Source of the DNA: Escherichia coli
Lineage (GTDB): Bacteria > Pseudomonadota > Gammaproteobacteria > Enterobacterales > Enterobacteriaceae
Length of the DNA: 413 nucleotides
Assembly: GCF_003334355.1 (NCBI RefSeq)
Contig: NZ_QOWP01000108.1
Direction: 5' to 3' (one strand)
The translations under genes and the position numbers were made by a program. Shown piece by piece: positions 1 to 413 of the stretch. The notes beneath the pieces were generated by a model. That model was given only the letters and a program-made list of their open reading frames with translations. It was not told the DNA's origin and did no database searches. How positions within the stretch are numbered: the stretch's first letter is position 1; each line of letters starts with the position of its first letter.

Positions 1-413
1 ACCTCGAAAAATCTTCCACCAGAAAGCTACCCAGTCGGCGCACCAATCCCGTGGCCATCAGATACCGTTCCGTCTGGTTATGCCCTGATGCAGGGGTAGA
101 CTTTTGACAAATCTGCATACCCGAAACTTGCAGCCGCTTATCCGTCAGGCGTGATCCCTGATATGCGTGGCTGGACGATTAAGGGCAAGCCCGCCAGTGG
201 TCGGGCCGTATTGTCTCAGGAACAGGACGGCATTAAATCACACACCCACAGCGCCAGCGTATCCAGTACGGATTTGGGGACGAAAACCACATCGTCGTTT
301 GATTACGGCACTAAATCCACGAATAACACTGGTGCGCATACCCATAGTGTTAGCGGTACGGCTGCTTCAGCCGGTGCACATACCCATTCGATGACATTTG
401 TTTCAGGTGGTTC
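1..413 (+). CDS. stf: Side tail fibre protein, lambda Stf-like, internal fragment open at both window edges; interrupted by an in-frame TAG at 97-99 (candidate pseudogene or amber allele)
   Basis: Frame +1 is open over 1-96 and 100-413, with a single stop (TAG, 97-99). The translation carries motifs I recall from lambda Stf and E. coli prophage fibre paralogs: [57 protein letters not shown] and the Gly/Ser/Thr-rich [24 protein letters not shown]. The family-like sequence continues straight across the stop, which argues for one disrupted gene rather than two adjacent genes. The reading frame enters at position 1 and leaves at 413 with no start or natural stop in view. The family-level symbol stf is used; the exact paralog cannot be told from this fragment. 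No alignment was run. Confidence 0.8.
331..390 (+). repeat. Imperfect direct repeat inside the coding sequence encoding two G-A-H-T-H-S His-box motifs
   Basis: ggtgcgcatacccat (331-345) and ggtgcacatacccat (373-387) are identical at 14 of 15 positions and both encode GAHTH in frame +1. A third His-box, SHTHS, lies at 238-252 but uses cac codons, so it is similar at protein level only. This is a coding-sequence repeat, not an intergenic repeat. Confidence 0.6.

Follow-up and report, generated by a model that had tools for sequence, protein, structure and literature searches.

The crystal structure of the T4 gp37 tip (PDB 2XGF), the closest described system of known fold, is that of an interwoven homotrimer with octahedrally coordinated iron (PMC6957217, PMC9603124). 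It comprises a collar (D10, residues 811-881 and 1010-1026) and a stem with its tip (D11), in which residues 882-931 form the outgoing stem strand, residues 932-959 the receptor-binding tip and residues 960-1009 the returning stem strand, and seven iron ions are bound by histidines along the needle (PMC6957217). The HxH motifs of T4 gp37 are found at positions 883/885, 915/917 and 929/931 of the outgoing strand and at positions 966/968, 980/982, 989/991 and 998/1000 of the returning strand. The homology of phage lambda Stf (orf-401/orf-314 in lambda PaPa) with gp37 has long been established, variation in the number of HxH motifs among phage fibres has already been discussed in the literature, and a 2022 paper deals with the family of T4/lambda receptor-binding proteins found in enteric prophages (PMC9659904).

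In the adhesins of T-even phages, His-box repeats (GxHxH, Pfam PF03335) are short conserved repeats that border a variable segment of the adhesin and serve as points of recombination. Duplications and recombination at conserved motifs of these adhesins were reportedly described by Tétart et al. in 1996 and 1998.

The window, i.e., the whole 413-nt stretch of DNA analysed here, reads in frame +1 as the C-terminal part of the side-tail-fibre (stf) gene of a lambdoid prophage, and it takes in the collar and the outgoing strand of the stem, together with the initial tip residues (Table 1). Of 5,426 complete E. coli genomes, 3,745 gave a megablast match to the window, as did 41 phage records; the matched features bear annotations as prophage tail fibre or side tail fibre proteins, and the best matches show 99.8% identity. 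One of these 99.8% relatives, the E. coli Combat11I9 locus (L001), codes for a Stf protein of 1,075 residues. Its stf gene is located downstream of J, between lom and a tail-fibre-assembly gene, in a prophage adjoining appY and ompT, and the CDS annotated as 'tail fiber assembly protein', which lies beyond the segment covered by the window, begins at the stf stop codon. The gene order J, lom, stf, tfa is common to lambda and to this relative; both the homology and the layout of the locus agree with the original prediction that the gene is a relative of lambda Stf, and lambda Stf with its chaperone Tfa belongs to the same gene family.

Table 1. Features of the window, in order of position, with the evidence or correspondence for each of them
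Feature	Position (nt)	Strand	Evidence or correspondence
stf C-terminal fragment	1..413	+	99.8% identity to prophage tail-fibre CDSs; homology to 2xgf
Phage tail collar domain (Pfam PF07484)	37..180	+	E 2.9e-12; residues 80-127 of L001:4800-5666, i.e., window codons 13-60
In-frame TAG (amber) for CAG (Gln)	97..99	+	Upstream of the repeat; equivalent of T4 gp37 Q836, in the collar
HxH1 (H-T-H), stem start	241..249	+	Translation; 2xgf alignment; T4 gp37 H883/H885
Decapeptide unit 1, with GTKTT at nt 277-291	268..297	+	Translation; unit consensus from 96 homologues
Decapeptide unit 2, with GTKST at nt 307-321	298..327	+	Translation; consensus; 27/30 nt identical to the third unit of lambda
HxH2 (H-T-H)	337..345	+	T4 H915/H917; most mosaic joints with relatives just 3' (nt 344-365)
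HxH3, last iron site of the outgoing strand	379..387	+	T4 H929/H931
Start of the hypervariable receptor-binding tip	388..413	+	Divergence among the 76 informative closest loci until the next HxH

The collar domain that precedes the stem corresponds to PF07484, and the 14-residue Phage_fiber signature (PF03335) gave weak matches at residues 143-155, 175-188, 190-199, 224-237, 239-250 and 248-259, all of which correspond to HxH units. The Pfam search returned no PF03335 match on the decapeptides themselves (residues 157-176), the match at residues 175-188 overlapping the end of unit 2 only. We found no NCBIfam family for the C-terminal domain, and the PHROGs search yielded generic 'tail fiber protein' families only. 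Rfam yielded nothing on either strand of the window, and the other frames, including those of the reverse strand, contain only short ORFs, none of them credible.

Two neighbouring segments of the Combat11I9 locus deserve mention. Just upstream of the collar, L001:4800-5020 (query residues 2-80) matches the structure of the phage Mu tail fibre protein S (8ju3, E 1.3e-19) and the Pfam gp37_C signature, and it represents a further mosaic module, fused to the needle of gp37 type. Downstream of stf-tfa, L001:6308-6976 and 7126-7293 harbour a gene for a SAM-dependent methyltransferase on the opposite strand and a pseudogene fragment of a tail-fibre-assembly gene, followed by appY, ompT and envY; this arrangement resembles the site of the DLP12 prophage in E. 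coli K-12.

A phmmer search against the PDB with the C-terminal part of L001 Stf retrieved 2xgf_A with an E value of 5.1e-89, query residues 75-289 being aligned with chain residues 27-242. The C-terminal 215 residues of this Stf are hence homologous to T4 gp37 residues 811-1026, i.e., over the whole C-terminal domain. As in T4 gp37, the full-length protein harbours seven HxH motifs in the same order, three of which are coded within the window, and the outgoing strands of the two proteins share one stem layout. In contrast, the tips between HxH3 and HxH4 are unrelated in sequence, the N-terminal shaft is of the lambdoid Stf type rather than of the T4 type, and the window copy, unlike T4 gp37, carries a premature amber codon (see below). 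T4 gp37 residues 892-913 correspond to the same two-unit segment as that of the window, with (G/S)TN(S/N)TG at its end. As the T4 gp37 tip structure of 2010 already shows this segment in resolved form, it is known in kind and represents an ordinary feature of the family rather than an unstable repeat.

The motif that drew attention to this segment, GTK(T/S)T, was described as occurring twice, about 10 residues apart, in frame +1 of nt 268-333, and its two occurrences are indeed found there with a spacing of exactly 10 residues, or 30 nt. On the window alone the repeat is statistically weak: a 4-of-5 pentapeptide recurrence at a distance of 5-15 residues was obtained in 642 of 5,000 residue shuffles of the window (~13%), as might be expected if a short peptide recurred by chance in a Gly/Thr/Ser-rich protein devoid of any repeat architecture. 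To go beyond the window, we collected 103 proteins, mostly of enterobacterial origin, that are complete from the collar to the C-terminus, using a word-indexed search and a 50%-identity representative search (the best 150 of 2131 representatives). The spacing between HxH1 and HxH2 is 22 residues in 2 of these proteins, 32 residues in 64, 41 or 42 residues in 30, 52 residues in 3 and 62 residues in a single one, which corresponds to one, two, three, four and five units, respectively. Three further proteins fall outside of these classes (spacings of 19, 64 and 69 residues), each of which is explained by an extra or a missing HxH motif. The unit consensus, established from 96 homologues, is [T/F]-D-[L/Y]-G-T-K-T-T-S-S, in which D2, G4 and K6 are nearly invariant, even across fibres with unrelated tips. 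Because the length classes of the homologues step by exactly 10 residues and the unit consensus is kept over one to five copies, the GTK(T/S)T motifs are genuine copies of one conserved 10-residue unit. A chance recurrence, to which we ascribe a negligible probability, is excluded by this survey.

The original prediction also stated that the number of FDYGTK(T/S)T units varies among lambda Stf relatives. This statement is borne out by the three units of lambda Stf compared with two in the window and by the range of one to five units in the family. Between lambda and the Combat11I9 relative, the DNA is 86% identical in the collar and 92% identical over the C-terminus and tfa. The two genes are colinear except for an unrelated tip and for two insertions in lambda, of 30 nt in the outgoing arm and of 27 nt in the returning arm. 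Decapeptide units thus number three in lambda and two in the relative, and returning HxH motifs number five (four of them nine-spaced) and four (three of them nine-spaced), respectively. The extra unit of lambda orf-314 is inserted ahead of the unit that matches unit 2 of the window. Tandem Repeats Finder detected a 30-nt array of 2.3 copies with 80% matches in lambda, and the extra unit shows ~73-80% DNA identity, versus 50% between the two units of the window.

These features of lambda, together with the presence of some mosaic joints at the repeat and with slippage or deletion events that look recent in the adjacent array of 27-nt His boxes (P0100, P0092 and P0114, see below), could be taken to mean that the segment is a near-tandem repeat currently prone to slippage or unequal recombination, with a copy number that is free among close fibres and drives their mosaicism. 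Such an array should show high DNA identity between adjacent units and copy-number polymorphism among close alleles. In the window, however, the two units are identical at 15 of 30 nt only, and neither Tandem Repeats Finder nor a separate repeat search found a 30-nt repeat in it. We also collected from IMG/VR the 80 loci that are most similar to the window, at 79-100% protein identity, and 76 of them have a readable repeat region; four loci lack an ORF with a collar, and one ends ahead of the repeat. All 76 informative loci have two units of almost invariant sequence, and their tips between HxH3 and HxH4 belong to many unrelated types. Similarly, among 60 E. coli records sampled evenly down the ranking of matches, about 56 are ungapped across nt 268-333, and only 2 have alignments that end at nt 315, a sign of the three-unit form. 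Among the phages, alignments end at nt 314/315 for lambda, phage Chlobot and two P1-like phages, and in every one of them three decapeptide units go together with four nine-spaced His boxes on the returning strand. In addition, unit number is coupled to a feature of the other strand in 211 of 214 sequences (see below). We therefore consider ongoing slippage at the decapeptides to be quite improbable, and this part of the original prediction is not retained. Its description of the segment as variable in copy number applies across the family but does not extend to close relatives. Two copies are the common, T4-like state, and the number of units varies across the family yet is constrained, rather than unstable, in this lineage.

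The constraint became apparent when both strands of the stem were considered. The nine-spaced HxH motifs at the end of the returning strand have the consensus G-x-H-x-H-x-V-x-I. Throughout the 103 complete homologues, n decapeptides are accompanied by n+1 nine-spaced returning HxH motifs (1/2, 2/3, 3/4, 4/5 and 5/6), the three proteins with off-class spacings conforming by unit count on inspection. When partial proteins and translated loci were included, the n/n+1 rule held in 209 of 214 sequences by regex count and in 211 after inspection, since two of the five exceptions are counting artefacts, caused by a degenerate third unit in P0226 and by a His-to-Tyr point change in one HxH motif of the IMG/VR locus L009 (AHAYTV). 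The matching of unit number to the number of HxH motifs on the return strand argues for a structural constraint rather than for free length variation. In the searchable literature, to which the primary structure paper does not belong, we found no statement of this rule; it is a modest possible addition to what is known rather than a discovery.

Three needles among the 214 sequences are truly unbalanced. In P0100, the returning His-box array contains a perfect tandem duplication of 9 residues (IGAHTHTLA-IGAHTHTLA), whereas P0092 and P0114 have lost 23 residues between two GAHTHSV repeats. Judging from these sequences, the changes look recent, and all of them are within the His-box array, not in the GTK repeat. 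No unmatched gain or loss of a decapeptide was found among the 214 sequences. Slippage or unequal recombination thus seems to occur at the His boxes and not at the GTK units, and the three variants indicate that an imbalance is at least encodable.

The lengths of the two arms agree with this coupling. The histidine-free filler of the outgoing strand comprises 7+10n residues, and the returning run of His boxes comprises 9(n+1) residues, both amounting to 27 residues at n=2, as in the window and in T4. As the two periods differ (10 versus 9 residues), the pairing would not be strictly one-to-one for values of n far from 2. On the T4 numbering, a linear antiparallel register defined by i+j=1891 gives the published G921-F970 contact, and the published G964-H929 contact falls within two residues of it. 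With this register, residues 892-913 are opposite H980/982, H989/991 and H998/1000, and the histidine-free segment 886-914, which contains both GTK units, faces three nine-spaced returning His boxes. From the linear register and the two published contacts, we infer that the decapeptides and the His boxes pack side by side.

Our preferred interpretation, which we regard as likely, is that each GTK(T/S)T motif is the core of a structural decapeptide, two of which are located in the outgoing stem of the gp37/Stf needle and are matched to the His boxes of the returning strand. In the proximal stem, the decapeptides would make up the part of the outgoing strand, from collar towards tip, that lacks histidines. 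Within the trimer, this part would run antiparallel to the returning strand of 9-residue His boxes, whose histidines are predicted to hold the axial iron ions, such that an outgoing filler of 7+10n residues would face n+1 His boxes. Because the filler and the His-box run are matched in length, the gain or loss of a decapeptide would require the matching change in His boxes on the other arm. Such a paired event is expected to lengthen or shorten the stem by one iron layer, both this one-layer step and the physical pairing of the two modules being deduced from the register and the length rule.

The decapeptides might alternatively constitute a functional surface, whose Lys, Thr and Asp residues, exposed along the flank of the stem, would mediate lateral binding to LPS or to a porin, or serve as a site for the Tfa/gp38 chaperone. 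The near-invariance of K6 and D2 would fit such a role, as would the requirement of gp38 for gp37 folding (PMC6957217) and the location of the tfa gene after stf. According to PMC5221442, Bartual et al. also put forward a transversal mode of docking, in which the head and needle domains both take part. However, the motif is unchanged in fibres with completely different tips, and hence with different receptors, and mutational mapping places the receptor contacts in the tip, at residues 932-959 (PMC6957217). We thus view a surface role as unlikely and favour the structural role in the stem.

The evolutionary changes in unit number probably followed two routes, neither of which involves ongoing replication slippage. 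The first one is the duplication of units or of blocks. P0186 and P0192, which harbour four and five units, respectively, have a periodicity of two units on each arm, as in a 20-residue block / TDLGTKTVSTFDYGTKTSSS on the outgoing arm together with ...VAMGAHGHTV... / ...IAMGAHGHTI... on the returning arm. This periodicity suggests that the four- and five-unit forms may have arisen by duplications of 20-residue and 18-residue blocks, a signal inseparable from the general similarity between units.

The second route is recombination, at the conserved repeats, of a cassette that comprises the stem and the tip. The right ends of the megablast alignments with the window cluster at nt 344-365, just past HxH2, and in the three-unit relatives they are found at nt 314/315, inside unit 2. 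These two clusters of ends appear to be the left joints of an exchangeable stem-plus-tip cassette. P0170, with two units, is identical to the three-unit proteins P0026 and P0175 from the collar through ...FDYGTK, after which the sequences diverge, to re-converge at IGAHTHSVAIGSHGHTITV; the collar and the C-terminus of three-unit proteins and of a two-unit protein are 100% identical. In a neighbour-joining tree built from the collar and the C-terminus, unit number is scattered, with a Fitch minimum of 21 changes. The scattering of unit number and the identity of the flanks show that a stem-plus-tip cassette has been exchanged between collar backgrounds. Its left joint would be the GTK repeat or HxH2, and its right joint the last His boxes. 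As both arms move together in such an exchange, the n/n+1 rule is preserved.

In this respect the family of the window resembles the T-even adhesins, with joints immediately past HxH2 and inside the last His boxes, and with rare duplication or deletion variants between His boxes. The GTK decapeptide differs from the T-even His boxes in that it is devoid of histidines and falls outside the PF03335 signature. The proposal that the segment contributes to fibre mosaicism is thus upheld in part: there are joints at the repeat in some lineages, but the truly hypervariable part of the gene is the downstream tip, from nt ~388 onwards.

The copy of stf found in the window differs from that of L001 by a single change over 413 nt, C to T at nt 97, and its reading frame through the C-terminus is not intact, with TAG where all its close relatives have CAG. 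An exact 35-mer that includes the TAG codon had no match in the GTDB representative genomes or in IMG/VR, and none of the best matches listed from the 5,426 complete E. coli genomes is 100% identical to the window, all of them being at most 99.8% identical. These comparisons point to a premature stop private to the window copy, which looks like an amber pseudogene unless the base is a sequencing error. Since an amber codon in the collar would deprive the protein of its entire needle, translation of the repeat within a functional fibre is improbable in this case, barring suppression or a sequencing error. Damaged stf copies are common among the IMG/VR loci that we fetched, as exemplified by L067, with a stop after ...QTFNKSA, and L080, which ends after ...TAASAG. 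In the IMG/VR locus L056, the third HxH is absent and the tip is shortened; in L067, L080, L009 and L056 alike, the matching region starts at position 1501.

For annotation purposes, the value of the segment is small, as it is a routine part of a tail-fibre gene that is very common in prophages, here with a premature stop. For the family, the coupling provides a design rule for swapping or resizing gp37/Stf needles, which is to keep n outgoing decapeptides with n+1 returning His boxes. For the engineering of fibre tips, natural crossover points are provided by the second GTK motif, by HxH2 and by the final two His boxes. More tentatively, and with less than even confidence, we propose that the proximal stem may be a modular ruler, in which a decapeptide and a His box are gained or lost only as a pair, in numbers n and n+1 with n = 1 to 5. 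The length of the needle would then change in quantal steps, perhaps tuned to the depth of the receptor under the O-antigen or the capsule.
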